Shown: positions 8,095-55,867, counted from the stretch's first letter. The stretch is DNA of 64,000 nt from Candidatus Jorgensenbacteria bacterium (GCA_043807585.1 JAZDFV010000001.1:46590-110589); one strand, 5' to 3'. The notes: a model not told the origin generated them from the sequence alone. Numbers and translations: made by a program.

Positions 8095-8439
8095 CTACCG
8101 TTTTCTTCCCTTGCTCTTTTTGCAACTTATGCAGAGTGCAGATTCCGGATCCACGTCGAGGAGCACCGGCTCTATTTCTTTACTGCACCGTTCACAGCGG
8201 CCGTAGTTCCCCACCCCGATTTTCGCGAGGGCGCTCCGAATGCGGTCCAGCTGGTGCCCGAGTACCCTCTTCAGGCCCAGCCAAGTGCCGAATTCTTCCG
8301 TCTCATCCGCTTCCTCTTCGAGGTGATCGGTGTCGTCGCCGAAATCCAGCCCCTCCTTGAAGCGTGCGAGCTGTCCTTCAATCTTTTTCTCCTGCGAGCG
8401 CAGTTTCTCTTCCAAATCCTTGCGGCGCTTTTCTTCCAT
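8095..8439 (-). CDS. DksA/TraR-family C4 zinc-finger protein
   Basis: CERCSKEIEPVLLDVDPESALCISCKK four-Cys finger with an N-terminal coiled coil. Start trimmed to MEEKRRK, which lies immediately after the CTCTAACGGG element end. Confidence 0.7.
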   Translation of the reverse strand: MEEKRRKDLEEKLRSQEKKIEGQLARFKEGLDFGDDTDHLEEEADETEEFGTWLGLKRVLGHQLDRIRSALAKIGVGNYGRCERCSKEIEPVLLDVDPESALCISCKKSKGRKR

Positions 8440-8615
8440 CCCGTTAGAGGCAGTCCCGTTAGAAATCCGCCCTGCGAGAGCAGTGGCGGCAGCCACCGTG
8501 GGGCGGCTTATTTCTAACGGGACGTGATGCCTCGTCTAGTTTGACTCCTGCGACCTTGCCCGATTGTTGAATAAACATATGGTTCTGGATTTAGTTGCCT
8601 CTAACGGGATCCATA
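8438..8615. mobile_element. MITE-like element with perfect 15-bp terminal inverted repeats ATCCCGTTAGAGGCA / TGCCTCTAACGGGAT; contains a nested pair CCCGTTAGAAAT / ATTTCTAACGGG (8455-8520)
   Basis: Inverted-repeat termini seen directly. Member of a 7-copy family in this window. Confidence 0.6.
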
Positions 8616-8759
8616 CGGGAAACAATAGCCCCCGAGGGGGATGTGGTCAATCCCTCACCCTTCTTTGTATTGCCGAGAGAAACGCCTTCGGTAGCACTAG
8701 CATTATGAACCTCTCCCCGTGGTGTCTCGGGGAGGTAGCAGCGGAAGGGTGAGGGAGGG

Positions 8760-9953
8760 CTAAAACCCTAATCGGCGGGCTGCCTCTGCACCCGCAGCGG
8801 CGTTTGTGGATATAAGAAGTGTACGGTTAACCCATGTGTAGCCGAGAGTGGACCCGGGCGTTGCAAAGTCAGCCAGCGAGGCGGGGTGTCCCTTGATGGT
8901 GCCGTCCCGCCATGCGCCCCCTACACCAGGGTTGGTAAGGAAAAAGTTTCCATTATCGGGGTCGTGTTGGAGCAAGCTCATTTTTCCCTGTGCGTCGCCG
9001 AGGTTCGCCGCGCCTTTCAGAGGTACCGCGAGGCCGAACCAAGTGCCGTCGGCTGCCGCGTAGGTGAAGTAGGTTGCGTCATCAGCGAAATATGCCAAGA
9101 TATCGGTGGTGAAGAAGCCCGGGACGAGGCGCTTTGCGAGTTCCCCAAACGCCATCACTTTCCCTTCGGCGGTTTTTAGCACCACCTCGCGGAAGAGCGG
9201 CACCGAGGCGTGGTCAAATGGAAGCGCTGCTTGCAACCCCACCACGCTCACGGGGGTGAGGGTAATATCGGTGCGGATGTCGGCGGGAATCGTGAAGAGA
9301 GTCGCGTGAGTATCGATGCCTCGGATCACTTCAGCCGGCGTCGAGGTCGGCGCGGGCACTACTGGCGGTGTGGGAACTACTGGCGGTGTGGGAACTACTG
9401 GCGGTGTTGGCGTTCCGCTTGGAGGTGGCGTTGCCACTTCTTGCGCGGGGGTTCCGGCGAACATCGGATAGATGAAGAAGTATCCCACGGCGGCGAGGCC
9501 TATCACCACCACAAACGAGATGATGCCGATGAAGATACCTCGCTTTGACCTGGGTTTTCCCGCGGGCATTGGAGGCAGAGGTGCGGGCGGCCCGACGGGT
9601 ACGGGCGGTTTTGGAGGAACACCTGCCTGCGCGGGCAGGCCGGCAGTTCCTATTCTGGGCGGTGTGAAAGGAATTGCGGGTTTTGAAAACGGGGCGGCGG
9701 GAGGACTGCCGGGGACCCCGGGCGGCGGCGGTGGCACTGGCCTGGGGACGTAAGAGCGGGGCTCTCCCCCTCCCTGCTCCTGCATAGAGCGGAGGTCCGA
9801 CCCCATGGTCCGCACCTCGGTCTTTGGTTGCGTCGACGGCGCGAGCGGCACCTCTCCCTCACCCGTTGGGAGATTCTTTGGGGGCTGTGGGGTACCCCAT
9901 CCGGGAGTCGTGGTTTCCATGCTTCTATTATACATCCTGTGAAAAGCATCCAC
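8760..9953 (-). CDS. proline-rich membrane-anchored protein with a C-terminal globular domain, hypothetical
   Basis: TM helix GIFIGIISFVVVIGLAAVGYFFIYPMF. PTPPVV x3 encoded by an 18-bp tandem repeat (9355-9414). True start probably internal to the ORF. Confidence 0.5.
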   Translation of the reverse strand: MDAFHRMYNRSMETTTPGWGTPQPPKNLPTGEGEVPLAPSTQPKTEVRTMGSDLRSMQEQGGGEPRSYVPRPVPPPPPGVPGSPPAAPFSKPAIPFTPPRIGTAGLPAQAGVPPKPPVPVGPPAPLPPMPAGKPRSKRGIFIGIISFVVVIGLAAVGYFFIYPMFAGTPAQEVATPPPSGTPTPPVVPTPPVVPTPPVVPAPTSTPAEVIRGIDTHATLFTIPADIRTDITLTPVSVVGLQAALPFDHASVPLFREVVLKTAEGKVMAFGELAKRLVPGFFTTDILAYFADDATYFTYAAADGTWFGLAVPLKGAANLGDAQGKMSLLQHDPDNGNFFLTNPGVGGAWRDGTIKGHPASLADFATPGSTLGYTWVNRTLLISTNAAAGAEAARRLGF

Positions 9954-10012
9954 AAAGAAGAGGTGTGTATAAGTTTAAAAAAGCCCCTGATGGGCCTATG
10001 AGCAGGCTACTC

Positions 10013-12091: not shown

Positions 12092-12174
12092 GTTTTTACT
12101 AAACGCTAATTTATGCTGATTTTGGCTGATTTACGCGGATATCTTTTTAGTCATTAGTTGTCAGTTGTAAGTTT

Positions 12175-12714: not shown

Positions 12715-12721
12715 TCTGATT

Positions 12722-13012
12722 TTATCCGACGTTGAGCGCGAGCTTCTTGGTGAGCTTTTCGTATTGCTGCTCGTCTTCGCGCTTCAGGTACTGGAGAAAC
12801 TTGCGCCGCTTCCCCACCATCATAAGGAGTCCCCGCCGCGAGTGGTGGTCCTTGGGGTGCTTTTTCAGGTGGTCGGCGAGCGTTTGTATCTGCTTGGAGA
12901 GGAGCCCGATTTGTGCCTCCGCCGACCCCGTGTCGGTCTCATGGCGCTGGTGATCCTTTATAGCATTCTGTTTCTGTCGCTTGGAGAGCATGATTTTTAT
13001 AAGTTTTTTCAT
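12722..13012 (-). CDS. rpsO: 30S ribosomal protein S15
   Basis: 96 aa. HQRHETDTGSAEAQIGLLS ... LKKHPKDHHSRRGLL signature. Sits upstream of pnp as in many bacteria. Confidence 0.92.
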   Translation of the reverse strand: MKKLIKIMLSKRQKQNAIKDHQRHETDTGSAEAQIGLLSKQIQTLADHLKKHPKDHHSRRGLLMMVGKRRKFLQYLKREDEQQYEKLTKKLALNVG

Positions 13013-13039
13013 TCTATCAGGGATTATAGCGTTTGTCTA

Positions 13040-13054
13040 CCCCGTTAGAGACGG
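13040..13054. repeat. solitary CCCCGTTAGAGACGG end-motif of the CCCGTTAGAG element family, upstream of rpsO
   Basis: Motif identical to element termini. No partner inverted repeat found. On the minus strand it is followed by a TATAAT box 13 nt before the rpsO ATG. Confidence 0.4.
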
Positions 13055-13098: not shown

Positions 13099-13123
13099 AA
13101 TTAACGACATCGTAAGTCGTTAA
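13099..13123. promoter_or_regulatory. second copy of the 25-bp palindrome ATTAACGACatcgtaaGTCGTTAAT, in the rpsO/xer divergent promoter region
   Basis: Identical to 5363-5387. Followed by a second imperfect palindrome TTTTGCAACACAaaaaTGTGTCGCAAAA and a TATAAT 6 nt before the xer ATG. Confidence 0.5.
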
Positions 13124-13177
13124 TTTATTTTGCAACACAAAAATGTGTCGCAAAATAATCTTTGCTATAATGAGGCG

Positions 13178-14065
13178 ATGACCGAAGTCCAAAAACTAGT
13201 AAAAGAGTATCTGGACTACCTGGAGATCGAGAAAAACCGCTCCCCGAAGACGCGGGAGAACTACACCCACTACCTTCATAAGTTCCTAGAGCTCTCCGGG
13301 GCGCGGACGGTGCGCGACGTTAGCGCGGAGGCGGTGCGGGAGTTCCGGATTACGCTCGCGCGGAAGAATTTGAAGAAAAACACCCAGAGCTACTACGTGA
13401 TCGCACTCCGCAACTTCCTGAAGTACCTCGTGCGCCGCGGTATCCCCGCGCTCCCTCCGGAGACCGTGGAGCTCCCGAAGGTTGCGAGGCGCGACATAGA
13501 GGTGCTCTCCTACCCCGAGCTCGAGCGCATCCTTGCGGCCCCAAAAGGAAGCGACCTTCGCACCCTCCGCGACCGCGCCATCCTGGAAGTTCTCTTTTCT
13601 ACCGGCCTTCGTCTCTCTGAACTGTGTGCCCTCCCCCGCTATATGGATCTCGCCCGCGGCGAGCTTTCGGTGCGCGGTAAGGGAGACAAGTTGCGTGTGG
13701 TGTTCTTCTCTGAGAGCGCAAAGCGGGCCCTCAAGGAGTATCTTGGGAAGCGGACCGATACCGAGGAGGCACTCTTTGTGAGCTTGGACCGACGCGGACA
13801 AGTGATCGGGAAGATCACTCCGCGGGCGGTCGAACGCCTCGTGGAGACCCGCGCGCGTGAGGCGGGAATCGCTAGGTTTCGGGTTCATCCACATCTCGTC
13901 CGTCACGCGTTCGCAACCGACCTCCTCATCAACGGCGCCGATCTCCGCTCGGTGCAGGAACTCCTGGGGCACGCGAACGTCGCGACCACGCAGGTCTACA
14001 CCCATCTCACGAACCAGGAGCTCCGGGAAGTGCACAAGGCCTTCCACGGTCGCCGCCGCTCGTAG
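13178..14065 (+). CDS. tyrosine site-specific recombinase, XerC/XerD family
   Basis: RHAFATDLL, LGHANVATTQVYTHL and a catalytic Tyr region. Start trimmed to MTEVQKL, where TATAAT lies 6 nt upstream (possible leaderless transcript). Confidence 0.85.
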   Translation: MTEVQKLVKEYLDYLEIEKNRSPKTRENYTHYLHKFLELSGARTVRDVSAEAVREFRITLARKNLKKNTQSYYVIALRNFLKYLVRRGIPALPPETVELPKVARRDIEVLSYPELERILAAPKGSDLRTLRDRAILEVLFSTGLRLSELCALPRYMDLARGELSVRGKGDKLRVVFFSESAKRALKEYLGKRTDTEEALFVSLDRRGQVIGKITPRAVERLVETRAREAGIARFRVHPHLVRHAFATDLLINGADLRSVQELLGHANVATTQVYTHLTNQELREVHKAFHGRRRS

Positions 14066-18884: not shown

Positions 18885-19286
18885 TTAAGGAGGGTTCGTA
18901 GTGAGCAATTTCTCAATAATAGACACCAATCCCCATCCGACGAAGATGATACCATAGCCCACCACCGCGTACAAGATGGTCTTCCGCCCCGTGCCGAATT
19001 TCTCCGGGTTGCCGCCCGCGAAGAGCATCTGGAACGCGCCGTAGATGATCATGACCGCCGCGATTGGCGCCGCCACAAGCACGAGCCAGTCCACGATGCG
19101 GCGCGCGAGCGTTTCCACGGTCGCGGTAGTGCCGAGGGGGTTAGGGAGGCAAATCCGCCCCGCGGGGCATTCAGCGATATCCCCGATTCCCTGGGTAGTT
19201 GCTGGGAAGAGCAACACGAGCGTTAGGCTGGTTACGATCGTGACAAGTGCCAAGGAAAAGTATCTCATGGTTGCTGACAATTCCAT
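18885..19286 (-). CDS. pilin-like small protein P4
   Basis: ORF 18885..19628 trimmed to Met MELSATMRYF; its ATG overlaps the stop of P5 (TAATG). Core AFQMLFAGGNPEKFGTGRKTILYAVVGYGIIFVGWGLV. Confidence 0.55.
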   Translation of the reverse strand: MELSATMRYFSLALVTIVTSLTLVLLFPATTQGIGDIAECPAGRICLPNPLGTTATVETLARRIVDWLVLVAAPIAAVMIIYGAFQMLFAGGNPEKFGTGRKTILYAVVGYGIIFVGWGLVSIIEKLLTTNPP

Positions 19287-19648
19287 TATATCACCGCGCA
19301 GGTCACCTGTGACCACGGGAGACCGGGATTCCCCGAGAGGAGCTGGAGAAGCTCGTTTATGAAAAGCCACGCGACGAGCGCAATGACGAGGCCAGTGACC
19401 GCTGCGGTCATGGTTTTCCGGCCGCCGGATACACGCTCCTCCGAACCGCCGGAGGTCACAAGCTGGATCGCGCCCCAGACGATCATCCCTACCGCGATCA
19501 CGAAAGCGATCTGCCAGAGGAACTGGATGATGTTCGAGGTGACTACCAAGGCGTCGCAGAAATTGCATGGGCCGGTGGGGCCGCCGGTGGTGATGGCAGA
19601 GGAAGCTCCGCACCTTGCTCCCTCCCAAATGTTGGCAATGATAGACAT
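19286..19648 (-). CDS. pilin-like small protein P5
   Basis: Core AIQLVTSGGSEERVSGGRKTMTAAVTGLVIALVAWLFI. Cys-containing N-terminal region. Confidence 0.55.
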   Translation of the reverse strand: MSIIANIWEGARCGASSAITTGGPTGPCNFCDALVVTSNIIQFLWQIAFVIAVGMIVWGAIQLVTSGGSEERVSGGRKTMTAAVTGLVIALVAWLFINELLQLLSGNPGLPWSQVTCAVI

Positions 19649-24894: not shown

Positions 24895-24956
24895 GCCGAT
24901 TATGTACGAATTTTCGAGTCCGCAGACGAAGAAAATTCGTCTACAAAATCGAGCAC

Positions 24957-25060
24957 CCCGTTAGATGCGGACAAACACATTCGGAGTGGTTCGACGATTG
25001 TTATCCATAATGCTCTATTTTTGTATTGAAATTTCATGTTGTTACCGCTATCTAACGGGG
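24957..25060. mobile_element. MITE-like element, inverted-repeat termini CCCCGTTAGATGCGG / CCGCTATCTAACGGGG
   Basis: AT-rich interior. Member of the CCCGTTAGA family. Confidence 0.55.
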
Positions 25061-25148
25061 TAAGGTTTTGTTATTAGTATTTGCGCGCCTTTGGCTTCAA
25101 ATACTAAACAAAGCCCTTACATTTTATCGCATTTTTCGATTGTTTTCA

Positions 25149-25273
25149 ATCCCGTTAGAAGCAATTTAAACAATGAATTGGTTTCTAAATTACCCAAAAG
25201 AAACGAGAAAAAAGAAACGAGTAAAAATCTGCATTTGTTACGGTCGCATGTGGCGACCTGCTTCTAACGGGAT
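25149..25273. mobile_element. MITE-like element, inverted-repeat termini ATCCCGTTAGAAGCA / TGCTTCTAACGGGAT, with the internal hairpin TTACGGTCGCatgtgGCGACCTG
   Basis: Perfect 15-bp termini. Tandem to the copy at 24957. Confidence 0.6.
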
Positions 25274-25377
25274 CAATCGCGCGGTGGCTAAAATTTGACG
25301 TCCGCGCCCAACACAAGGTATGCTCAGCTGACCAAGTGACATAAGTAAACAGCTGACCAAGTGACTAATTAACCAGT

Positions 25378-26460
25378 ATGGTTACCAAATCGCCCAACAC
25401 ATTACTAACACAGCTCATAAAAAACGAGCCGGCGGCTTTTGCGCTTTTGAAACCCGGTGATCTCGTGGAAGGGGCCGTGCTCGAGAAGGGTGCCCGGCGT
25501 CTCCTCATAGACCTCGGGAAGTTCGGCGTTGGCGCCGTCTACCGTGGCGAGCTTCTCGCGGCGCGCGAGGTGGTCCGGAACCTGAAACCTGGGGACCAAG
25601 CGCACGCGAAAGTAATGGTAGTGGATAACGAGGAGGGATTCGTGGAGCTTTCCCTCGCAGAGGCGGGCCGCCAGAAAGCGTGGGCGGCGGTACTCGAGCT
25701 CCAGGAGAAAGGAGAGCCGTTCTCGGTCAAGATCACGGGTTGCAACCGCGGGGGAGTGACCGCGGAAGTGTGCGGTCTCCCCGCGTTCCTCCCTGTCTCA
25801 CAGCTTGGTGGCGAGCATTATCCGAAAGTGTCGCCAGAGGAGCGTGGGGAACTCGGTGCCGCGCTCCAGAAACTTGTGGGAGAAGAAATTACCGTGAAGA
25901 TCCTTGATGCGAACCCCCGCACTGAAAAACTCATTCTCTCGGAGCGGGAGGCGATGGAGATTTCCACACGGGAGCTCGTGAAGAACTACGCGGTGGGGCA
26001 GGTGGTGGAGGGCATCGTCTCTGGGGTGGCGGACTTCGGGGTCTTCGCGCGGTTCACCGACAATCCGGCCGTGGAGGGCCTGATCCACATCTCCGAACTC
26101 TCGCACCAAACAGTGGGGAATCCGAAGGAGGTGGTGAAGGTGGACGACGTGGTGAAGGTGAAGATCACCGACATCAAGGACGGACGCATCTCTCTTTCAT
26201 TGAAAGCGCTCCAGGCGGATCCGTGGGAGGCCGCCGCGGAGCGGTTCGCGGTGGGGCAGGAGGTCACTGGTACGGTCTACAATTTCAACCCGTTCGGCGC
26301 CATCGTCGCCGTGGGAGATCTCCAGGGGCAGCTCCACGTGACCGGTTTCGGGAGCATGGAGGATATGAAGAAGAAAGTGGCGCTGGGAGAGTCCTACTCC
26401 TTCGTGGTGCAGGACGTGAAACCGGCGGAGCGGCGACTGGTGCTGAAATTGAAGGAGTAA
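25378..26460 (+). CDS. S1 RNA-binding domain protein (ribosomal protein S1-like, about four S1 repeats)
   Basis: Repeated GxxVxGxV ... G(F/L)(V/I)H(I/V)SE S1 signatures. A candidate promoter TTGACG-18-TATGCT lies upstream. Confidence 0.8.
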   Translation: MVTKSPNTLLTQLIKNEPAAFALLKPGDLVEGAVLEKGARRLLIDLGKFGVGAVYRGELLAAREVVRNLKPGDQAHAKVMVVDNEEGFVELSLAEAGRQKAWAAVLELQEKGEPFSVKITGCNRGGVTAEVCGLPAFLPVSQLGGEHYPKVSPEERGELGAALQKLVGEEITVKILDANPRTEKLILSEREAMEISTRELVKNYAVGQVVEGIVSGVADFGVFARFTDNPAVEGLIHISELSHQTVGNPKEVVKVDDVVKVKITDIKDGRISLSLKALQADPWEAAAERFAVGQEVTGTVYNFNPFGAIVAVGDLQGQLHVTGFGSMEDMKKKVALGESYSFVVQDVKPAERRLVLKLKE

Positions 26461-28385: not shown

Positions 28386-28457
28386 CGGCCCGTAGCTCAA
28401 TGGCAGAGCTGTCGCCTTATACGCGAATGGTTGGGGGTTCGAGTCCCTCCGGGCCGA
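28386..28457 (+). tRNA. tRNA with anticodon TAT (would read AUA, Ile); anticodon stem has one G-A mismatch
   Basis: Manual fold. Acceptor CGGCCCG/CGGGCCG, D-arm GCTC-aatggca-GAGC, anticodon loop CTTATAC, T-arm GGGGG-TTCGAGT-CCCTC, discriminator A. Confidence 0.6.
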
Positions 28458-28458
28458 C

Positions 28459-28530
28459 GGACGGTTAGCTCAGCGGCAGAGCACTGCTTTTACACAGCAG
28501 GGGCCATAGGTTCGAATCCTATACCGTCCA
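28459..28530 (+). tRNA. tRNA-Val (anticodon TAC)
   Basis: Acceptor GGACGGT/ACCGTCC, anticodon stem CTGCT/AGCAG, anticodon loop TTTACAC, T-arm ATAGG-TTCGAAT-CCTAT. Confidence 0.85.
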
Positions 28531-28678
28531 CTTTGTGCGGGACACCGAGTAGGTTGGCGCAATCCCGCACCATCGCGTAAGCTATGGCGCGTGGCGATTC
28601 CATCAGCGCGCACAAATTCCCTTACGGGGGATTTTATTTGACACCGCGTTTTCGTGCGCGTATCGTAGTTGCACATAC

Positions 28679-35330: not shown

Positions 35331-35522
35331 ATAAAACCAATTGTCTTATGAGGGTTTTTGAAGTTGGAAGGGTGGGTAGTTTAGGATCTATTTTTTGATG
35401 TATTAAAACTATCCTATGGTTACGGTCGTCTCTGTAGGATAGTTCAAGTTTTACCCGCGTTAAAGAAAGAAACCACGGGTGTAAGCCCGTGGAATTTCAT
35501 TTACCCTGAGCTTGTCGAGGGG

Positions 35523-36570: not shown

Positions 36571-37269
36571 TTATTCCGTAGATGTCGCGCTCGCCTGTCC
36601 GGTAGGCAGAGTACTCGTTGTCATCTGATAGAAAATTTGTTTCGTGAAGGTTTTTCCCGCGCCGAGGAGCCGTTTCACTCTGAACTCGAACGTGTTCCAA
36701 CCGTCTTTCAAGGTCACCAATTTTTCAAATGCGCCGTTGCTGTAAGGATAGAGCACTTCGCCGTTCAGCGTCAATTGATCGTTTTCGTTCACCGTGCCTT
36801 TGATGGTGAACGCGGATTCCTGCACCACCATGCCTTCGGTGATGTTCACCGAGAACTCATAGGAGTCCACAAAGGCGGGAATGCGAAAGAGAACGTACCC
36901 GAGGATGAGAACTCCGAGGAGCACCCAGAGAACCATCTTCCAGTTGAACCGCGGGATCGCGAAGCGGTTCGGGGGGAAAGTGTCACTTTCCCCCGCGCGG
37001 CGGACCGCGGCGCTCTCCGCGAGGTACCTGCGCCAGAGTTCTTCGCCGTCCAAGCCCAGCACCTCCGCGATTTTCACGAGGTAGCCGCGCATGTAGGGCG
37101 CCGCAGGGAGCTTGTGGTAGTGCTCTCCTACGAGGAGCTCCAAGAAGCGGTCCGAGATGCCCGTGAGCTGACTCAAGCGCTCCAAGGAAACACCCTTCAT
37201 ACGGAGGCCGTCCACGATTAGGTTCGCGAGGGCGCGCGTCTCCGGTGTGATTGGTTCACTCCGATTCAT
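36571..37269 (-). CDS. RodZ-like protein (N-terminal HTH, single TM, C-terminal DUF4115-like domain)
   Basis: HTH ([20 protein letters not shown]), TM ([17 protein letters not shown]) and a C-terminal beta-rich domain. Its start abuts the element end CTCTAACGGG. Confidence 0.7.
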
Positions 37270-37388
37270 CCCGTTAGAGGCAGGAAGCGCTGGCGCTTCC
37301 GTGCATGGAACACGAGACCTTTGATCCGGTTGATGCTGTGTGTTGCGGTTTTAGATTTCATTTCGCATTTTGATTGCCTCTAACGGGA
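37270..37388. mobile_element. MITE-like element, inverted-repeat termini CCCGTTAGAGGCA / TGCCTCTAACGGG
   Basis: Perfect termini. Internal palindrome AGGAAGCGCTGGCGCTTCC. The right end supplies the TAG stop of ftsK and the left end abuts the rodZ-like ATG. Confidence 0.6.
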
Positions 37389-39506
37389 CTCGTTTTCATT
37401 GAGGTAGACGTCCCGCGGCTTCGCTCCTTCGCCGGGACCTATCGCTCCCTGTTCTTCCATGATATCCAGGAGCCGCGCCGCGCGCGCGTAGCCGACCTTG
37501 AGGCGCCGCTGGAGAAGCGAGGCGGATGCTTTTTTCGCGCTCCGCACGAGTGCCACCGCCTCGGAGAGGAGCGGGTCTTCGTCACTTCCCTCCCCGCCCG
37601 CAACCGCTTCAAAGGGAGAGGTAGGTGCTTCTGCAGGTCCGACCTCCCCTGCCTGCACAGGCAGACCGTTCGCTGATGCGATTTCCACCGTTTCCTCCGG
37701 CGCCTCGTTGTGTTCGCAGATGAAATCCACCACTTTTTTCACCTCCTCCTCGGAAATGTAGCTCCCCTGAAGTCGAGTTGGTTTGGATTTTTCCGCGGAG
37801 ACGTAGAGGAGGTCGCCGCGGCCCAAGAGTTTCTCGGCGCCCCCGGTGTCCAGGATGGTACGCGAGTCCACTTGGCTCGCCACCTGGAGGGCGACGCGGG
37901 TGGTGATGTTCGCTTTGATGAGGCCGGTGATGACCTCCACCGAGGGCCGCTGCGTTGAAACTACCAAGTGAATGCCGGTGGCTCTGGACATCTGTGCCAG
38001 GCGGATGATGTACCCCTCCACCTCGCGCCCGAAGGTGGTCATGAGGTCGGCGAGTTCGTCAACCACCGTCACGATGTAGGGAATCGGTTCCGCGGCATTC
38101 TTGTTGTAACCCCTGATGTCGCGCGCCCCCGCCTTCAGAAGCAACCCGTAGCGGCGGTCCATCTCATGGATGAGCCACCGTAGCGCCCCCAGTGCCCTCT
38201 TGTTCTCCGTCACGACCGGCGCGATGAGATGCGGGATGCCGTCGTAGACCGAAAGCTCCACCCGTTTCGGGTCCACTAGGATGAGGCGGAGCATCTCGGG
38301 CGAATTTTTGTAGAGAAGCGAGATGAGGAGCGCGTGGATGGCGATGGATTTCCCCGAGCCGGTAGCGCCGGCGAAAAGGAGGTGCGGCATGCGATCGATG
38401 TTGGGGAAAATTGGTTCCCCCTGCACGTTCCGTCCCAGTGCGAAGGTGAGCGACTCCCCTTTCTGGAACTCGGGGTAGAGGAACAAACTCCCGAGGCGCA
38501 CCACGGCGGCCGCTTTGTTTGGAACCTCAATTCCCACGAGTGATTTCCCGGGGATTGGCGCTTCAATGCGGATTGGGTGGGCGGCGAGGGCGAGTGAGAG
38601 GTCGGACCCGAGCGCGGTAATTCGGGAAAGTTTCACCCCCTCCGCCGGTTTCAGGGTGAAGCGGGTGACCGTGGGGCCCACGTTCACCTCCCCCATCTCC
38701 ACGGGGATGCCGAAACTCTCCAAGGTGCGTTTGATGATGTTTGCGTTCGCCTGGAGGTCGCCGATGGTAGGTTTCTCCACCGAGGAGATGAGGAGCGAGA
38801 GGGGCGGCGCCACGTAGTTCCTGATTGGGCGTGTGCGTGCCTTCTGTGCTGGTGCCGTGGTAAACTCGGCGACCACTTCCATTGCGCGTTCTTTTTTCGC
38901 TTCCTCCCGTTTCTCCTTTGACGATCTTGACGATTCCCCTCCCGGTTCCGGGGGCAGTTTGATCTCCAGTTTCTCGCCCAGTTCCTCATCCATCTTGCGG
39001 AGCTTGCGCAGGCGTCCTAGCGAGAAGGGGCGGTTCACCGCCACAAGGAACGAAGCTACAAGAATGGTTCCAGTGATGACGAGCGAGGCGGGAATGCCGA
39101 ACGGATCCTGCAGACCACCAATGCCTACCCCCACCAAGCCGCCCTTCCCCGGTGCGACGATGTCAATGAAACCGAGGGCGGCGAGGATAAAGAGGGATGC
39201 CCCCACGAGCGTGATGCCCCAGAAGCGCCGTGGCTCCGGTGAGAGGAACGAGAGTCCCAGGATGAGCGCGGTGAGTGGAAGGAGGTAGTAACCCCACCCG
39301 AAAAGTTTCTCAAAAAAACGAAAGAACGCGCCGCCCCATGGACCTGCCTGCCCGACGGCGGCGAGGATGAATACTACAGTTAGGCTGAAGCACAAGAGTG
39401 CGGCTACGTGCCGTTTCGTATCCGGGTGGAGCTCAACGCGCGTCTCGCGCGTTTCCTCTTGCTCGTTCTCGTCTCTCCGCGGCCGCCCGCGTTTCCGTTT
39501 TGCCAT
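37380..39506 (-). CDS. ftsK: DNA translocase FtsK
   Basis: N-terminal TMs, linker, motor domain (GATGSGKS Walker A) and C-terminal gamma wHTH domain. Confidence 0.9.
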   Translation of the reverse strand: MAKRKRGRPRRDENEQEETRETRVELHPDTKRHVAALLCFSLTVVFILAAVGQAGPWGGAFFRFFEKLFGWGYYLLPLTALILGLSFLSPEPRRFWGITLVGASLFILAALGFIDIVAPGKGGLVGVGIGGLQDPFGIPASLVITGTILVASFLVAVNRPFSLGRLRKLRKMDEELGEKLEIKLPPEPGGESSRSSKEKREEAKKERAMEVVAEFTTAPAQKARTRPIRNYVAPPLSLLISSVEKPTIGDLQANANIIKRTLESFGIPVEMGEVNVGPTVTRFTLKPAEGVKLSRITALGSDLSLALAAHPIRIEAPIPGKSLVGIEVPNKAAAVVRLGSLFLYPEFQKGESLTFALGRNVQGEPIFPNIDRMPHLLFAGATGSGKSIAIHALLISLLYKNSPEMLRLILVDPKRVELSVYDGIPHLIAPVVTENKRALGALRWLIHEMDRRYGLLLKAGARDIRGYNKNAAEPIPYIVTVVDELADLMTTFGREVEGYIIRLAQMSRATGIHLVVSTQRPSVEVITGLIKANITTRVALQVASQVDSRTILDTGGAEKLLGRGDLLYVSAEKSKPTRLQGSYISEEEVKKVVDFICEHNEAPEETVEIASANGLPVQAGEVGPAEAPTSPFEAVAGGEGSDEDPLLSEAVALVRSAKKASASLLQRRLKVGYARAARLLDIMEEQGAIGPGEGAKPRDVYLNENESR

Positions 39507-40996: not shown

Positions 40997-41584
40997 ATGA
41001 GGCACGGAGAGGCAATTCCAAAAATTCTTGAGATCTTACAGGCAGGCGCAGAGGCGAGCGCCGGGCTCTTTGATGCGTTTACTTCCGGCTACGGGGCTTC
41101 GTATCGAAAATTTTCGCGCATGGCGCAGAGCGGCCCCGCGCGATTTAAAACGGATTGGGCAGAATCTTATCGTGAACACCAAAAATTCTATACACTCCTC
41201 AATAAATTAAAGCGCGATGGTTTGGTGGTGAACGAGGGAAAGCAGCGAGCGGCTATCTGGAAGATCACAGAGAGGGGAGTTGCAAAATTAAAACAAAGAA
41301 AGAAAAGGGTACATTTGATTTCTACTCCGCCCGTGTACGGAGGAGGGAAGGGAGAAAAGTTGTATGTTATTTCTTACGATATCCCCGAGCGGGAGCGGCA
41401 CAAACGTGCCTGGCTCCGCGCGGCGCTTCTCTCGCTCGGTTTTTCGCCGCTCCAAGAGAGCGTGTGGGTAGGGAAGCGACTGATTCCCGAGGATTTCATT
41501 CACGATCTCCGTGAATGGGATATAGTGCGCTACGTGCACATTTTTGAGGTGAGCAAGAGCGGAACCCTCACCCCGTTTAAATAA
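40997..41584 (+). CDS. wHTH domain fused to a Cas2-like C-terminal domain (PaaX-like/Cas2-like regulator or nuclease)
   Basis: The C-terminus (LYVISYDIPERERHKRAWLRAALLSLGFSPLQESVWVG) follows the Cas2 core pattern hhhVxYDI ... RR ... L ... G ... Q-SVF/W. The N-terminus is HTH-like. Confidence 0.45.
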   Translation: MRHGEAIPKILEILQAGAEASAGLFDAFTSGYGASYRKFSRMAQSGPARFKTDWAESYREHQKFYTLLNKLKRDGLVVNEGKQRAAIWKITERGVAKLKQRKKRVHLISTPPVYGGGKGEKLYVISYDIPERERHKRAWLRAALLSLGFSPLQESVWVGKRLIPEDFIHDLREWDIVRYVHIFEVSKSGTLTPFK

Positions 41585-41642: not shown

Positions 41643-41684
41643 TCTTACTACACCAACTAACGGTCGGAAATTGGTGCAGTAAGG
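41643..41684. repeat. second copy of the 40-bp hairpin element (TACTACACCAACT-aacggtcgga-AATTGGTGCAGTA)
   Basis: Near-identical to 40921-40961. Confidence 0.6.
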
Positions 41685-44696: not shown

Positions 44697-44713
44697 TATA
44701 CTGTAGATATGGA

Positions 44714-44830
44714 TCCCGTTAGAGACAATTGAAATAACTACCATGCAATCCATTATTTATAAGAGTAAAATAACAACGGAGAAAAAGTCGCTTTTTTTAC
44801 GGTCGTCTATGACGACCTGTCTCTAACGGG
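44714..44830. mobile_element. MITE-like element, inverted-repeat termini TCCCGTTAGAGAC / GTCTCTAACGGGA, with the internal hairpin TTTACGGTCGtctatgaCGACCTG
   Basis: Perfect 13-bp termini. The right end directly abuts the hsp20 ATG. Confidence 0.65.
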
Positions 44831-45298
44831 ATGGAAGAAAAATCGAAGGATAACTCATCGGACGTGTTTGCGGAGCTCGCAAAGGTGAGGAGCTCCCCTA
44901 CGCCGCTTAAGATAGAGGTGGCGGATACTCCTCCTCCGCTCACGGAGGAGATAGAAGACGAAAGCGAGGGCCAGCTCACGGTGGACGTGTATCGCAACGG
45001 GAACGACACCATCGTGGTGCAGTCCACGGTCGCGGGGGTGAACCCCGAGGATTTGGAGATCAACATCACGAACGAATCAGTGACCATCCGAGGCGCCCGC
45101 GGGAGGACGGAAAAGGTGGAAGATAAGGACTACTTCTATCAGGAATGTTTCTGGGGCAAGTTCTCGCGGTCCGTCATTCTGCCCTTTGAAGTGGACCCGG
45201 AGAAATCAACCGCCACGGTCCGGAACGGCGTGCTCACTGTCCGCCTCCCGCGCCTGAACCGCCAAAAAGTAAAGAAATTGAAGGTCAAAACCGATTAG
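44831..45298 (+). CDS. Hsp20/alpha-crystallin family small heat-shock protein
   Basis: LTVDVYRNGNDTIVV ... GVLTVRLPR alpha-crystallin domain. Confidence 0.85.
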   Translation: MEEKSKDNSSDVFAELAKVRSSPTPLKIEVADTPPPLTEEIEDESEGQLTVDVYRNGNDTIVVQSTVAGVNPEDLEINITNESVTIRGARGRTEKVEDKDYFYQECFWGKFSRSVILPFEVDPEKSTATVRNGVLTVRLPRLNRQKVKKLKVKTD

Positions 45299-47156: not shown

Positions 47157-47367
47157 GCGGGTATTATACCCGCCTCCGAGAAACTATATATAGTTTGTCA
47201 GAATGCCGCTATTTTATATAGTTTCCCCAACTAAAAAGAGTCATCCGGTTGATATGGGTTTTCGCCGCGGTTTGCTCCGGCATTACGTATGATCGGAGAA
47301 TTCGGTTTCCCCATTCTCCTCAAAAAGCAAAAAAGGCCACGATGGTGTGACCTTTTTGCCTGAATCT

Positions 47368-51996: not shown

Positions 51997-52427
51997 TCTA
52001 GCGTTACTGGGTAAAATCCTATCACAAATGTTCTATTCTGTCAAACCCCTGCCTTCGGCAGACAGGCCCACACCCATACATAGGTGTGGGGGTCAGATAA
52101 CAGGCATGGTCAGAGGTTCAGATTCCCGTCCACAGGGAATAGCTTGACTTTTTATTGCCTATATGCTACGATGCAAACAGATTATAAAAGGGGCATTCAG
52201 CCCTCGATGTTGAAAACCAAATATGTGAATAGCGGTGAGATTCACCAGCAACGCAGTGAGAGCAATAAAGCATCAATATTGTTCCTGGTGCGCTGCTGGT
52301 GAGGGAAATAAATGGATCCTTGCCAACCCGTCACATGTCTGCGGCTCGGCAGCGGCTCGGACAGTCGCCTGATAAGAACAGGCGATGACCCAATCGGCCG
52401 ATAAGAACGGCTGAAAGGAGAAACACT

Positions 52428-52982
52428 ATGTCACCTCAAAAATCGCTGAGGATAGCGCGAATAACGCGCATATTGGAAAGGGTGCGGGATTTTGGGCCGG
52501 CTTTCCTCATACTGCCGCTCTTTCTCCTGTTCGCTCTCGATTTAGCATTTCTTGCTTGGAACGCAGGGATTGAAACGGTCATCAGGCCCTCTGGGGCGGC
52601 GACCCTAGACCTGGGCGCTTCGATTATTCGGGCAGTGGCATTTCTCGCGGCAGAGGTATTCATAATACTCAGCTCTCTATATCTTGCAGTTCAATGCAGC
52701 ACGAAACTTCTTCCTGACCCCATCATCAATGTGATTCAGTTCTTGATTCTCTGCAGGTCTTATCCATTGAGTGCTAAGGATCGGATGGGGGTGGCAAGAG
52801 CTGCGGTGTCCGCTCTCGCGGCACGCTTCGTCAGTATGTCGGATGAGAAAGCTGGTATCAGCAAGCGCGATGATCCAGAACTTAGTGCCGCCTGCGAATT
52901 GCTTTGGCGGGCCGTGAAATATGCCAAGGAAAATGGGTGCCCGATTCAGGGGGAGAGTGCGAGAGATTTTGTCATCTCGTAG
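52428..52982 (+). CDS. membrane protein, hypothetical
   Basis: AAAGGAG RBS. Two or three TMs. Confidence 0.45.
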   Translation: MSPQKSLRIARITRILERVRDFGPAFLILPLFLLFALDLAFLAWNAGIETVIRPSGAATLDLGASIIRAVAFLAAEVFIILSSLYLAVQCSTKLLPDPIINVIQFLILCRSYPLSAKDRMGVARAAVSALAARFVSMSDEKAGISKRDDPELSAACELLWRAVKYAKENGCPIQGESARDFVIS

Positions 52983-53034
52983 TAGAATCAGTTAGAGCGC
53001 CCGGCAGAAATTCATTCTGCTGGGCGTGTTGTTT

Positions 53035-54129
53035 TTACAAATTCAGATTCCCGTTCGCAACTAAGGGAAGTTTTTCCTTGCGGAGGTAGGCGATGTAGCC
53101 GGCGGCACCGATGATGGCGGCATTGTCGGTGTTCAGGTTCATAGGGGGAGCGAAGAAATCGACAGACAACTTACGACTAACGACTAACAACTCTTCGCGG
53201 AGCGCGGAGTTTGCCGCGACGCCGCCCGAGAGCATGATGGACCTGGCTTTATATTCCCGCGCCGCGCGTTCCGTTTTCGCAGCGAGGACGTCAATTGCGG
53301 CTTGCTGGAAACTTGCGGCGATATTCGCTGCGAACGCGGATTTATGCGGATTTTTTACTGATTTATGCGGACATTTATTGTCGCGGAGGTAGTAGAGTAC
53401 CGAGGTTTTGAGTCCGGAAAAGCTGAAATCATAGTTCTTCGAGTGGAGCATCGGGCGGGGGAATGGGATGGCGGCGGGATTGCCCTGCGCGGCGAGCTTC
53501 TCGATCTCTGGGCCACCTGGGTAGGGGAGCTCGAGGAGCCGTGCCACTTTGTCGAACGCCTCGCCCACCGCGTCGTCGCGGGTCTCGCCGAGTTTTTTCA
53601 TTTTAGTAAGCGAATCCATCTTGAGCAGGATGGTGTGTCCCCCGGAAACGATGAGGGCTACTGCTGGAAAAAGTTTAGAAATTAGAAATTTGGAATTAGA
53701 AATTCCAGTTTTCTCCGAAAGGAGAAAACTGTACAGGTGTCCCTCCAGGTGGTTCACGCCGATGAGTTTCAGCTTTGAGCTTCTAGGTTTTAGCCTTAAG
53801 CAAATCTCTTGGGCAAAATTCACGCCTGTCCAGAGCGCGGGTTCCAGGCCTGGGCCAACGGTAACGGCGATGAGGTCAGGGATAAATTTCGAATTTCGGA
53901 TTTCGGATTTCGAATTTGCAAAAACCTTCCGATAAAGTATCGGAAGGTTTTTGAGGTGCTCCCGCTTCGCGAGGTTTGGCACCACGCCGCCGAACGGGCG
54001 ATGGATTGCAATCTGCGAGGAGACGAGGTTTTCGAGAATTTTAAACCGCGGGGCGCGGAGACCCCCCTGCGCCTCAAGGAGTGCAATCGCGGTTTCGTCA
54101 CACGATGTTTCTATCGCGAGAACGCGCAT
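53035..54129 (-). CDS. tsaD: tRNA N6-adenosine threonylcarbamoyltransferase TsaD (Kae1/YgjD), with two repeat-encoded loop expansions
   Basis: MRVLAIETSCDETAIALL, GVNHLEGHL, VSGGHT and DNAAMIG-like motifs. The ORF 5-prime extension is rejected. Confidence 0.9.
   Translation of the reverse strand: MRVLAIETSCDETAIALLEAQGGLRAPRFKILENLVSSQIAIHRPFGGVVPNLAKREHLKNLPILYRKVFANSKSEIRNSKFIPDLIAVTVGPGLEPALWTGVNFAQEICLRLKPRSSKLKLIGVNHLEGHLYSFLLSEKTGISNSKFLISKLFPAVALIVSGGHTILLKMDSLTKMKKLGETRDDAVGEAFDKVARLLELPYPGGPEIEKLAAQGNPAAIPFPRPMLHSKNYDFSFSGLKTSVLYYLRDNKCPHKSVKNPHKSAFAANIAASFQQAAIDVLAAKTERAAREYKARSIMLSGGVAANSALREELLVVSRKLSVDFFAPPMNLNTDNAAIIGAAGYIAYLRKEKLPLVANGNLNL
53672..53735. repeat. AT-rich tract (TTAGAAATT units) plus the perfect palindrome CAGTTTTCTCC-gaaa-GGAGAAAACTG (53706-53731), embedded in tsaD
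   Basis: Encodes LSEKTGISNSKFLISKLF. About 10 aa longer than E. coli TsaD at this loop. Confidence 0.8.
53884..53953. repeat. heptamer repeats (GAATTTC / GGATTTC) plus the perfect palindrome AAAACCTTCCGATA-aag-TATCGGAAGGTTTT (53921-53951), embedded in tsaD
   Basis: Encodes YRKVFANSKSEIRNSKFIPD. Confidence 0.8.
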
Positions 54130-54248
54130 ATGTTTTGGTTTATTGTACTGGTACGGCCGTGATTTGACAAAGGTGTCTTGTTGTGATAGAAAAGATACAG
54201 CGTACAAATCACGTTTTTGTTCAATTAACAATCTGGAAAGGGATGCAT

Positions 54249-54731
54249 ATGAAAACGTCACGAGTGATTCGTTTTTTTGCCTCCGTGGCATTCGGGGTCA
54301 TCTGTGTGTTGTTGTTTTGGAACGCGGGACCGACCATGCTTCTCATTGGGTTCCTCGCTCTACTCGCCTTTATCATTGGGGCATTGCTTCTTTTGGAGGG
54401 GGCGAGTTCAAATCAACAGCGCAATGTTTTGAAGGTTGGATTGCTTCTTCTCATGACCGCAATCGGGGTAATTATCGGCTGGACGAATATCGGATTCGTC
54501 TTCGTTTACGGCATCGGGTGCATCGGTACTGGGTTTTTGTTTCTTGTGCTTGCGCTTCGGTTCTATCCGCGTCGGGAGACGGCAGAACGCTTTCTCGAGG
54601 GCACTCTGCGTGCCATTCTTTATCTTTTGGTACTCCTTTTAGGACGCGGGAGAAATGAGCCGACGGAGGAAAAGGTCAGGAATCTTGCATCCCATATCAG
54701 AATGCGTCTCCGCGAAAATCTGTTCACATGA
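54249..54731 (+). CDS. membrane protein (4 TM), hypothetical
   Basis: ORF trimmed to MKTSRV. Confidence 0.5.
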   Translation: MKTSRVIRFFASVAFGVICVLLFWNAGPTMLLIGFLALLAFIIGALLLLEGASSNQQRNVLKVGLLLLMTAIGVIIGWTNIGFVFVYGIGCIGTGFLFLVLALRFYPRRETAERFLEGTLRAILYLLVLLLGRGRNEPTEEKVRNLASHIRMRLRENLFT

Positions 54732-54863
54732 GACGAACCATAGTGTGCCCGCTCCTCTCCAGGGAACGGGCACTTTGTATTTTTCCACCGCATTTGACAG
54801 CGCGTCTGCTTCCCCGTACCTTTATTCGCAGAACGTTTGTTCCACATTCGGAGAGGAGGAGCC

Positions 54864-55055
54864 ATGGAACGGCTCTTGAACATGCTTGCGGCAATGGGGC
54901 AGATGACTTTCGGGCTTGTGGGTTTCCTGATCGTGATGGTTGGTTCCATCTTGATCGGTACGCTCCCGACGCTGTATTTTCTCGCTGTCATCCGCTTCTA
55001 CCACACGCGCGCCGTGGTGCAGGTGCGCATCAAACCAGGCCCGTTCTCGCGATAA
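54864..55055 (+). CDS. small membrane protein (63 aa), hypothetical
   Basis: GGAGAGGAGG RBS. One TM. Followed by a terminator. Confidence 0.35.
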   Translation: MERLLNMLAAMGQMTFGLVGFLIVMVGSILIGTLPTLYFLAVIRFYHTRAVVQVRIKPGPFSR

Positions 55056-55084
55056 TCGTGAGAACGGGCGCTTTCTTTTTTTGG
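55040..55084 (+). terminator. rho-independent terminator (CCCGTTCTCGCG-ataat-CGTGAGAACGGG followed by a T-tract)
   Basis: 12-bp stem with one G-U pair, then ctttctttttttgg. Confidence 0.65.
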
Positions 55085-55310
55085 CAGCGGGAGGGTATAC
55101 TAACTTCTGGCAATTGGAAAGGTCGTCCCGATTTTGTATGAGCGAAGCGAATTTACAAAAGCGAGGACCGAGCACATAAGGCATTTACTATGAATGTTTC
55201 AAGGGAACAAAAACCAACCGTTTTCCGAAAGAACCTTATGTGCTCGGTGCTCAATCTTAAACTAAATTTTATTCGCCGCAGATCGGCTCTAAAATTCAAA
55301 TAAAATTGGC

Positions 55311-55718
55311 ATGATCCAACCACTTTTCGTGTTCTACGATTGGGGGCTCCTCGCTCTCCGGGTGATTCTCGGGGTCATCCTCGTCGTCCACGGATTTCCA
55401 AAGCTGAAGAATCTCAAGGTGGCGGGAGGGGGGTTTGCGGCGATGGGGTTTCGGCCCGGCGTGTTCTGGGCGGTGGTCGTCGGTGTCGTGGAGTTCGTGG
55501 GCGGGCTCATGCTCATCGCAGGGTTCTTGACCCAGCTCGTGGCGCTCCTCGTGTTTCTCCAGTTCCTTGTCGTCATCTTCAAGGTGAAGCGGGGGAAGGG
55601 TTTCACGGGGGAATACGAATTCGATCTCTTGATTGCGGCAGCGGCGCTCCTTCTCATGACCACCGGCGGGGGCTTTTGGAGCATTGAGCAGGCGAACGGA
55701 ACGTTCCTGCTATACTGA
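55311..55718 (+). CDS. DoxX-family membrane protein
   Basis: LALRVILGVILVVHGFPKL and overall 4-TM DoxX pattern. Confidence 0.75.
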   Translation: MIQPLFVFYDWGLLALRVILGVILVVHGFPKLKNLKVAGGGFAAMGFRPGVFWAVVVGVVEFVGGLMLIAGFLTQLVALLVFLQFLVVIFKVKRGKGFTGEYEFDLLIAAAALLLMTTGGGFWSIEQANGTFLLY

Positions 55719-55762
55719 AGGGCTTGGTCCCCGACGCTACGTCGGGGTTACCAAGCCCTTCA

Positions 55763-55867
55763 CCCCGTTAGATAGCGGTAACAATATGAAACTTCAGTAC
55801 AAAAATGAAAAACTACAAACCATCACCACTGAGCCACCTCGCGTGGATTTGTACGCATCTAACGGGG
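55763..55867. mobile_element. MITE-like element, inverted-repeat termini CCCCGTTAGATAGCGG / CGCATCTAACGGGG
   Basis: The termini are cross-matched with the copy at 24957-25060. AT-rich interior. Confidence 0.55.

Follow-up and report, generated by a model that had tools for sequence, protein, structure and literature searches.

Repeat copies and gene starts in the window

The sequence under study was a 64-kb window (the whole stretch of DNA analysed) from a Candidatus Jorgensenbacteria metagenome-assembled genome (MAG; 55% G+C), in which short inverted-repeat elements lie on and between gene ends. An earlier note on this DNA had described them as a mobile family resembling miniature inverted-repeat transposable elements (MITEs), and direct reading bore out its paired copies and solitary end, with coordinates good to 1-2 nt, as well as their AT-rich interiors. 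When both strands of the window were searched for CCCGTTAGAG with at most one mismatch, 15 matches were found against 3.6 ± 1.8 expected, a number reached by 0 of 100 shuffles. Read directly, the matches form seven inverted pairs, CCCGTTAGA…TCTAACGGG, and one solitary arm. The terminal inverted repeat (TIR) is 13 bp long and reads [T/C]CCCGTTAGA-NNN … NNN-TCTAACGGG[A/G], and the copies are referred to here as T…A or C…G type. The window copies are 69-171 bp long and contain no GIY-YIG or other conserved open reading frame (ORF). The coincidence of element ends with start and stop codons, which the earlier note had pointed out, is real and forms the core of the biology described here. The copies are as follows.

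8439-8609, minus strand: outer copy, T…A type, ORF-less; arms at 8440-8449 and 8599-8608; on the start codon of the DksA/TraR-like gene
8454-8522, unstranded: inner copy of 69 bp inside the outer copy; arms at 8455-8464 and 8512-8521; GC-rich hairpin interior
13040-13052, minus strand: solitary, decayed right-type arm with an exact CCCGTTAGAG at 13041-13050; 28 nt upstream of rpsO
24956-25060, orientation not securely assigned: C…G-type copy, ORF-less; arms at 24957-24966 and 25050-25059
25150-25272, plus strand: T…A-type copy, ORF-less; arms at 25151-25160 and 25262-25271; 105 nt upstream of the S1-domain gene (25378-26460)
37269-37388, minus strand: T…A-type copy, ORF-less; arms at 37270-37279 and 37378-37387; between ftsK and the RodZ-like HTH_25 gene
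44714-44831, plus strand: T…A-type copy, ORF-less; arms at 44715-44724 and 44821-44830; on the start codon of hsp20 (44831-45298)
55763-55867, orientation not securely assigned: C…G-type copy, ORF-less; arms at 55764-55773 and 55857-55866; no flanking duplication

The genes had been assigned correctly (DksA/TraR-like, RodZ-like HTH_25, FtsK, HSP20, S15, S1, and DoxX), and the DksA-like, RodZ-like, and HSP20 ORFs do all start with CTCTAACGGG-ATG. In the DksA/TraR-like gene (8095-8439, minus strand; Pfam zf-dskA_traR), the A of the ATG is the terminal base of the copy at 8439-8609, which is flanked by a perfect duplication (TCCA at 8435-8438 and 8610-8613; TGGA in gene orientation). The inner copy occupies the place of the subterminal hairpin of other copies; it would be a nested insertion, and its flanks (GCAG and CGTG) show no duplication. 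The copy at 37269-37388 lies between ftsK (37380-39506) and the RodZ-like HTH_25 gene (36571-37269), both on the minus strand and both assigned by Pfam. Element sequence at 37380-37388 gives the last two codons of ftsK (Ser-Arg) and its stop, the TAG in the element arm that had been recognized before, and the same copy gives the A of the rodZ-like ATG. At 44714-44831 the duplication is perfect (TGGA at 44710-44713 and 44832-44835), with the old start codon at 44709-44711. This old hsp20 ATG, left of the element, opens a 7-codon upstream ORF (uORF) reading MDPVRDN-stop, and TATACT at 44697-44702 is probably the -10 box of a leaderless hsp20. The rebuilt hsp20 AUG has no Shine-Dalgarno (SD) sequence and stands at the foot of a -38 kcal/mol stem, and it is the uORF that a leaderless 5' AUG now opens.

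The copy at 25150-25272 also has a perfect duplication (TCAA at 25146-25149 and 25273-25276). It bears a 3' module, TTACGG-TCGC…GCGA-CCTGC, and is akin to 44714-44831 (alignment score 129 vs. 66.5); the internal hairpin TTACGGTCG…CGACCTG is common to these two copies, as had been noticed, and an analogous ACGGAAGCGC…GCGCTTCC is present in 37269-37388. The C…G-type copy at 24956-25060, in the divergent intergenic region between a Lactamase_B_3 gene and the S1-domain gene, is akin to the reverse complement of 55763-55867 (alignment score 137.5 vs. 70.5); it has an extra A in one arm and flanks (AGCA and TAAG) without duplication. The copy at 55763-55867 lies between a DoxX gene (55311-55718) and a family-2 glycosyltransferase (GT2) gene (55929-57434; both by Pfam). 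Orientation toward a gene start is secure for the solitary arm and all four T…A copies but not for the two C…G copies.

No partner for the arm at 13040-13052 was found within 3.5 kb at up to two mismatches. The TATAAT reported after this arm is present between it and the ATG of rpsO (12722-13012, minus strand, Ribosomal_S15), but it lies outside the element and is not carried by it. A tyrosine recombinase gene at 13130-14065 (Phage_integrase and SAM-like N-terminal domains, Xer-like) adjoins the arm and is divergent from rpsO; it is probably the housekeeping Xer, and no link to the element was found. Shorter motif matches at 41657, 45328, and 63796 were assigned to chance or coding sequence and are not copies. 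The degenerate relative suspected at 35400-35445 could not be upheld: termini are lacking, and its likeness to one copy is confined to 12 nt (TTACGGTCGTCT) inside an unrelated 9-bp hairpin.

Target-site duplications and empty sites

Two collections were scanned for further copies. A search for CCCGTTAGA-N80-110-TCTAACGGG, with one genome per species, found the termini in at least 120 loci; nearly all of those listed are from Patescibacteria, Omnitrophota, Planctomycetota, or Deltaproteobacteria MAGs. A search of metagenomes for the same arms 245-275 nt apart gave 123 elements among the matches listed. Both scans demanded exact 9-mers at either end, and the invariance of those nine positions is therefore a matter of ascertainment. 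The copy sets used below were drawn from the matches listed and comprise 147 copies with flanks, 136 copies oriented by their own sequence alone (flanks unused), and 123 mid-size elements (264-293 bp). L-numbers denote loci or contigs collected for comparison, among which L124-L127 are syntenic Jorgensenbacteria contigs.

Across the 147 copies, the direct-repeat match at the six bases on either side of the core was 0.50, 0.82, 0.75, 0.77, 0.80, and 0.44, and about 0.2-0.3 in all other registers of the comparison. Because of this profile, the unit is taken to be [T/C]CCCG…CGGG[A/G] with a 4-bp T-N-N-A duplication. The duplication that the earlier note had proposed to look for was thus found; it was perfect in 91 of the 136 oriented copies (those with enough flank) and in three window copies, with the preference TGAA > TAAA > TGGA.

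Empty sites, the other check proposed, were found at hsp20, ftsK/rodZ, and DoxX/GT2. Related Jorgensenbacteria (ValRS 69% identical to that of the window) keep the gene orders ValRS-PrsW-HSP20, FtsK-RodZ, and DoxX-GT2 and have no element at any of the three. At hsp20, L124, L125, and L126 are empty and colinear with the reconstructed site: the empty start reads TGTTATACTTGAAGC-ATGGAAGAAAC in L126 and GATATAATAAAGAGGT-ATGGAAGAAAAT in L124, and the filled site of the window reads GTGATATACTGTAGATA[TGGA]T-element-A[TGGA]AGAAAAATCG. Aligned in this way, the hsp20 locus shows that the element went cleanly into the native start codon and duplicated the target. In L124, ftsK and rodZ overlap by ATGA without an element; this comparison suggests that the original ftsK TGA overlapped the rodZ ATG in the window as well, where the left duplication copy of 37269-37388 is absent and may have been lost in a 7-nt deletion. 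DoxX and GT2 are 32 bp apart in L126, again without an element. L124 bears copies at other places, and in L008 one copy is nested inside another. On the strength of these alignments, the repeats are mobile DNA, and their mobility is evident from the comparison between species.

Start codons as the target

Reconstruction of the empty site from T…A copies that have a perfect duplication gave A (48/53), T (51), G (43), R, A (43). The CPR-type target (CPR, candidate phyla radiation), A|TGRA, is thus the start codon of a host gene. Among the 136 oriented copies, 74 abut a start (61 ATG and 13 GTG) and about nine face the other way; in roughly 60 of the 74, that start opens an ORF of 60 amino acids or longer. 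In the commonest neighbourhood, the left-hand gene points its 3' end, and the right-hand gene its 5' end, toward the copy. The last base of the element, together with the duplicated TG, rebuilds the ATG or GTG, and the old start codon survives on the left.

It had been proposed that the element end carries an initiation context, ATGGAAGAAAA. Since hsp20 also starts with ATGGAAGAAA in relatives that have no element, ATGGAAGAAAA is native hsp20 sequence, to which the element contributes only the first base (A, or G elsewhere). The similarity of the two genes that start with ATGGAAGAAAA reflects the target preference (A|TGGA). C…G copies are common outside the CPR and prefer T-W-W-A.

Before the old ATG, a TANNNT motif was found 5-8 nt away (peak at 6 nt) in 15 of 55 targets and an SD-like run in 8 of 55. 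With this spacing and so few SD sequences, many targets look leaderless or nearly so. At hsp20, TATACT precedes the ATG by 6 nt both in the window and in L126. Other window genes look leaderless or nearly so as well: a MurD-like gene has TATACT or TATAAT 6 nt before its ATG (47157-47175), and rpsO has its TATAAT 10 nt before the start (13013-13035). Still other genes have clear GGAGG sites, and together these sequences point to mixed initiation modes in this CPR genome.

GIY-YIG coding partner

Full-length elements of about 264-293 bp have the same termini and 4-bp duplication and a single ORF, which is predicted to encode an 86-residue GIY-YIG nuclease of the UPF0213/COG2827 type. GIY-YIG similarity was detected in 95 of the 123 elements of this size. 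The ORFs of L107 (279 bp) and L008 (386 bp, split by a nested 106-bp copy) match PF01541 at E = 6e-14 and 2e-15, respectively, and the nearest solved structure is the UPF0213 protein 1ZG2 (E = 2e-7). Full-length copies also occur in the CPR loci L120 and L031. The nuclease family comprises 1,746 clusters at E < 1e-5, typically of 86 amino acids and annotated only as "GIY-YIG nuclease family protein." In an alignment of 29 members, the two Tyr, the His, and the Glu of the GIY-YIG motif never vary, and the Arg and Asn seldom do. The protein consists of the catalytic domain only, with no separate DNA-binding domain.

The element itself lacks a stop codon for the nuclease ORF, which extends across the right repeat (…F-L-S-L-T-G). 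In 27 of the 29 aligned members the repeat encodes a C-terminus of LSLTG or LTLTG/LTLTV; the remaining two, which are shorter, end in GGLTG. The stop (TGA or TAA) consists of the first three bases of the duplicated target and overlaps the rebuilt host start as (A/G)TGA. In ORF orientation, the codon after the terminal base is TGA in 53 of 92 elements and TAA in 11; the terminal base and the two that follow form ATG in 42 of 92 and GTG in 19, and 50 of these 61 open real ORFs. The old host ATG is in frame with, and open into, the nuclease ORF in 20 of 92. L128 shows the whole arrangement, AAAA[TGAA]C-CCCGTTAGAGATTATTCT-ATG TTT TAC … CTA TCT CTA ACG GGG-[TGA A]AATCGG, which reads M-N-P-V-R-D-Y-S-M-F-Y-T-Y…L-S-L-T-G-stop, the stop overlapping the rebuilt GTG of a glycosyltransferase gene. 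Judged from these alignments, insertion with a 4-bp duplication, targeting and rebuilding of start codons, a nuclease ORF integrated in the termini, and a stop supplied by the target are properties of the family.

Several clustered arrangements were also observed. Tandem elements with one shared duplication copy occur in L033 (7674-7895; …TCTAACGGG-ATTCAT-CCCGTTAGA…), and in L120 (6798-7171) a MITE is followed directly by a full-length copy. In one annotated nuclease protein, P0206, the reading frame continues past the usual end and enters the adjoining element (…LSLTGVNPVRD). Small genes of kinds that are typically multi-copy also occur next to the element: in L134 (641-2671) a GIY-YIG copy has a 23S_rRNA_IVP (four-helix-bundle) gene and NYN-domain genes as neighbours, and in L038 (6796-7260) a solitary arm adjoins an ORF that we take to be GxxExxY-like. 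The neighbourhoods in L134 and L038 may be hotspots for small selfish genes.

Terminal stem and interior of the ORF-less copies

TIR positions 0, 10, 11, and 12 vary among the 147 copies and agree within a copy in 88-94%. In 48 aligned copies, the 13-bp terminal stem contains four covarying pairs, at three of which 23 of the 48 copies are changed on both sides; pairing reaches 99.7%, and a slid register receives no support. G-U occupies 3 of 144 cells at the variable stem positions, and this near-absence would indicate a DNA-level rather than an RNA-level constraint. A second short helix, ACGG-NNNNN…NNNNN-CCT, stacks on the 3' arm and makes the element asymmetric. Folds had z-scores of -4.3 to -7.3 against shuffles, with energies of -40.2 kcal/mol (z = -6.3) for 25150-25272, -48.4 kcal/mol (z = -7.3) for 37269-37388, and -38 kcal/mol (z = -6.6) for 44714-44831. 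Rfam returned only three tRNAs from the whole window at the gathering threshold and nothing meaningful for the copy at 44714-44831 at E ≤ 10.

The analogy with promoter-carrying Correia, RUP, or BOX elements was not sustained. Hexamers resembling a -10 box were found on the sense strand of 80 and the antisense strand of 76 of the 136 oriented copies, without a positional peak, and scans of three copies for promoter and terminator consensus sequences gave a single consensus match, in one window copy, and nothing beyond AT-richness. The more general proposal of a MITE-like mobile family distinct from Correia, RUP, and BOX is in agreement with the different duplication and ends and with the lack of a promoter.

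The window copies and the full-length element have the TIR, duplication, target, and orientation in common. Near the 3' end they share a match of about 10 nt (TTCCT-R-Y, F-L codons), in the sense orientation only, and the TTACGG motif of the MITEs corresponds to D-L-R codons of the nuclease. Because only the ends match, we infer rather than observe that the MITEs are deletion derivatives. The CCC-GTT-AGA frame is open through the interior in 23 of the 74 copies at start codons, vs. 10 and 7 for the other two frames. Core length modulo 3 is skewed (40/21/13), and the top class ends at the right-arm TAA, 4 nt before the rebuilt ATG; of the 13 copies with a length that would fuse them in frame to the host protein, none is open.

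Proposed mechanism and alternative explanations

Taken as a whole, the data are probably best explained by a GIY-YIG mini-element that inserts at start codons, together with its MITEs. Under this explanation, the window copies would be ORF-less, non-autonomous members of a widespread mobile family and would need to be moved in trans. The element would land on the A|TGRA start codon of a host gene, often one that is leaderless or lacks an SD sequence. The old start codon, left of the element, would then read the CCC-GTT-AGA frame (M-x-P-V-R…), making the element the first cistron on the initiation signals of the host. Ribosomes would be handed on to the host gene by termination-reinitiation at the stop-start overlap, which would make the start codon a tolerated, safe landing site in gene-dense genomes. 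We lean slightly toward such translational coupling of element and host gene. That the nuclease is also the mobility enzyme is our best guess, at a little under even odds. It might cut at ATGAA, after which a resident copy would serve as the template and be copied in by way of the short flanking repeat. Copying would explain the fixed orientation of the ORF-less copies, for which selection by the host is the alternative; symmetric cut-and-paste would randomise that orientation, and the observed bias speaks for copying or selection. The joint reading, that the nuclease mobilises a start-codon parasite of a new transposable-element class that has seeded MITEs in CPR, Omnitrophota, Planctomycetota, and Desulfobacterota, is offered tentatively. 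To our knowledge, the element of about 280 bp would, on this joint reading, be the smallest autonomous prokaryotic transposable element.

Several observations weigh against this account or parts of it. A full-length, nuclease-bearing copy was not found within the 64-kb window, and an intact duplication is absent in three of the six paired window copies and in the inner nested copy. C…G copies show no start-codon preference and no consistent orientation. When MITE interiors with the ends removed were compared by nhmmer with a profile of 91 full-length elements, no match to the nuclease gene was obtained at E ≤ 1. The upstream frame is open in only about 31% of start-codon MITEs, and the hsp20 copy leaves a 7-codon uORF; coupling thus does not hold in every case. 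Recent multi-copy bursts were not seen, as identical nuclease proteins on 14-40 contigs represent one locus in many samples. GIY-YIG enzymes are hydrolases, and we know of no strand-transfer chemistry among them. Known members leave 1-2-nt 3' overhangs, vs. the 4-nt stagger that a 4-bp duplication suggests.

The lack of known strand-transfer chemistry would suit an ordinary MITE family that is moved by an unseen classical DDE transposase (IS1380- or piggyBac-like), with the GIY-YIG gene as a passenger, addiction, or homing module and the enrichment at start codons as the outcome of a sequence preference for ATGAA and purifying selection. Staggered cutting and fill-in are the textbook source of such duplications, and the 4-bp T-N-N-A duplication and the [T/C]CCCG ends fit a 4-5 bp duplication with CC… ends. 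PiggyBac has a TTAA target and CCCTAGAAAG… ends and IS1380 has CC ends, which may amount to a resemblance in sequence. A relationship between IS1380 and piggyBac is documented (PMC10813416, PMC12732532), and the literature bears out the 4-5 bp duplication. Nevertheless, no DDE transposase gene bounded by these repeats was present in about 0.9 Mb of flanks or in the 123 mid-size elements. In the same 0.9 Mb, around 150 listed copies, there were no arms paired over more than 400 bp, no protein family that recurred next to the copies, and no other candidate enzyme; the only ORF found between these arms was the nuclease, in 95 of the 123 mid-size elements. Searches for a classical autonomous insertion sequence (IS) spoke against one: arm pairs up to 3.5 kb, and searches for partners of solitary arms, gave only degenerate partners and elements of 279-392 bp, an 888-bp candidate pair in L038 encloses a thiolase-like gene, and all-against-all clustering of 714 flanking ORFs produced a largest family present in 9 of 120 loci. 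Passengers are not built into termini in the way of this ORF, for which the repeat encodes LSLTG and the target gives the stop. A transpososome on symmetric TIRs also predicts either orientation for ORF-less copies, in contrast to the 74 that face a start codon and the approximately nine that face away. A hidden DDE transposase is thus unlikely.

Three further explanations were considered. The elements could persist as RNA-level regulators of the host (an RNase III site, a thermosensor, or a translational gate, e.g., at hsp20 and dksA), with mobility ancient and incidental. The very stable folds, the compensatory changes in a terminal stem whose last paired base is the A of the start codon, the old and diverged within-genome copies with arms still complementary, and the stress functions of two of the window's three genes with a copy on the start codon are all in line with this idea. 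It is nonetheless improbable, since the downstream genes are unrelated across the 120 listed loci, orthologues in close relatives lack the element, the few G-U cells are unlike those of selected RNA helices, Rfam gave no match, and a nuclease gene is found between these same ends. Another candidate was a site of tyrosine recombination, either integron attC-like or a Xer/dif-like hairpin, because of the GTTAGA/TCTAAC core, the size of 66-133 bp, the covarying stems, the extra-helical base in some copies, and the recombinase gene at 13130-14065; the attC core sites GTTRRRY and RYYYAAC are indeed resembled by GTTAGAR and YTCTAAC. The polarity is reversed, however (5'-RYYYAAC…GTTRRRY-3' in attC vs. 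5'-GTTAGAR…YTCTAAC-3' here), the copies are single and dispersed at gene starts rather than arrayed beside an integrase, and variable 4-bp duplications are not made by site-specific recombination. On polarity, dispersal, and duplications, an attC or Xer site was discarded as very improbable, and the Xer-like neighbour is probably coincidental. A vertically inherited promoter or operator box common to many genes would account for the position of the motif directly upstream of gene starts in most window copies, yet the termini are nearly always paired, a -10 or -35 signal of fixed position is lacking, and a coding full-length form exists; the orthologous empty sites and flanking duplications refute such a box, which is hardly credible.

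Comparison with known systems

The mini-element and its MITEs combine features of several known systems. Generic traits of MITEs were found, namely TIR, duplication, small non-coding multi-copy units, and insertion polymorphism. As in the Correia/NEMIS elements of Neisseria and the RUP elements of pneumococcus, the copies are about 100-170 bp long, ORF-less, and multi-copy, have a TIR and a duplication, are polymorphic among relatives, form long hairpins in the transcript, and can alter gene ends. Unlike Correia and RUP, the duplication is 4 bp (T-N-N-A) and not TA (IS630-type), start codons are rebuilt, orientation at start codons is fixed, and several phyla rather than one genus are involved; the partner is the GIY-YIG element of about 280 bp and not a DDE IS, and no conserved promoter was found. 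The termini CCCGTTAGA are also unlike the Correia and RUP repeats. With piggyBac and IS1380 the family has in common the 4-bp T-N-N-A duplication (TTAA in piggyBac), short terminal repeats, and CC(C) ends, the likeness of the end sequences being tentative. It differs in the absence of an associated DDE transposase, in the target (TGAA or TAAA, not TTAA), and in orientation-specific insertion.

Free-standing GIY-YIG homing genes (T4 seg, I-TevI-type) are selfish nuclease genes that lie at host gene borders or in the gaps between genes and rely on the host's signals for expression. The full-length relatives likewise carry a selfish GIY-YIG nuclease gene with the conserved Tyr, Tyr, Arg, His, Glu, and Asn, but in contrast to homing genes the protein has 86 residues without a DNA-binding domain, the element has a 13-bp TIR, a 4-bp duplication, and ORF-less derivatives, and many unrelated loci per genome are occupied rather than one cognate site. 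UPF0213/COG2827 proteins (Escherichia coli YhbQ, Bacillus halodurans BH0048, PDB 1ZG2) belong to the same group and have the same size and catalytic residues. Members of UPF0213/COG2827 are, as far as we know, treated as ordinary cellular genes with no assigned role, whereas the gene described here is bounded by inverted repeats, ends inside a repeat, and takes its stop from the target. The 23S rRNA intervening sequences contain a small ORF (S23p, four-helix-bundle) within stem-forming inverted repeats, occur in many phyla, and are suspected to be mobile. The element is similar to them in having a small ORF flanked by stem-forming inverted repeats (one such gene is the neighbour of the GIY-YIG copy in L134); it differs in protein family, and the intervening sequences sit in rRNA helices and rebuild no start codon. 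A search of the literature on the sequence, CPR MITEs, start-codon MITEs, GIY-YIG genes with inverted repeats, and UPF0213 found no description, although coverage was incomplete and an earlier report is possible.

Other features of the window and of the collected contigs

An identical 23-bp hairpin, TTAACGACATCGTAAGTCGTTAA, with a T-rich run is present at 5364-5386 and 13101-13123 (0 expected by chance); one overlaps the start of a KsgA-like gene, and the other lies between the solitary arm and the Xer-like gene. The hairpin might belong to another small repeat family or act as a terminator or operator common to both places. A tRNA-Ile with anticodon UAU, uncommon in bacteria, stands directly beside tRNA-Val(UAC) at 28386-28531. 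A T4SS-pilin/TrbC-like protein and a protein with a PaaX/Cas2-like domain are encoded at 18885-19628 and 40997-41584, respectively, without a connection to the element. A phage origin of the repeats was rejected: of three matching viral contigs, the two inspected (L121 and L123) hold an unrelated palindrome array, the third being L122. The palindromes, GTTAGAAC-N4-GTTCTAAC, are about 60-130 bp apart (L121, 6240-6990; L123, 8380-9210) and matched the search pattern by chance; the array resembles a series of repeated phage operators or binding sites.

Implications for CPR genomes and mobile elements

The element family unites a MITE with a selfish nuclease gene, and there is a substantial chance that it represents a new class of transposable element. 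If the nuclease does drive mobility, it would add a sixth enzymatic class to DDE, DEDD, HUH, serine, and tyrosine enzymes and would set a new lower size limit. Even without mobility by the nuclease, the arrangement would be a strategy for compact genomes, in which the start codon is duplicated, the old copy is used by the element, and the rebuilt copy is left to the host; we know of no description of a strategy of landing on, duplicating, and rebuilding start codons. Many "GIY-YIG nuclease family protein" annotations in uncultured phyla probably correspond to this element. For genome annotation, start codons beside CTCTAACGGG are chimeric, C-termini such as that of FtsK can be derived from the element, and N-terminal MxPVR extensions are insertion artefacts. 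Furthermore, the leaderless-looking targets offer a direct way to ask how translation starts in the CPR, and for population genetics at the strain level in groundwater and sediment metagenomes, the element may be useful as an insertion marker that is both dense and datable.

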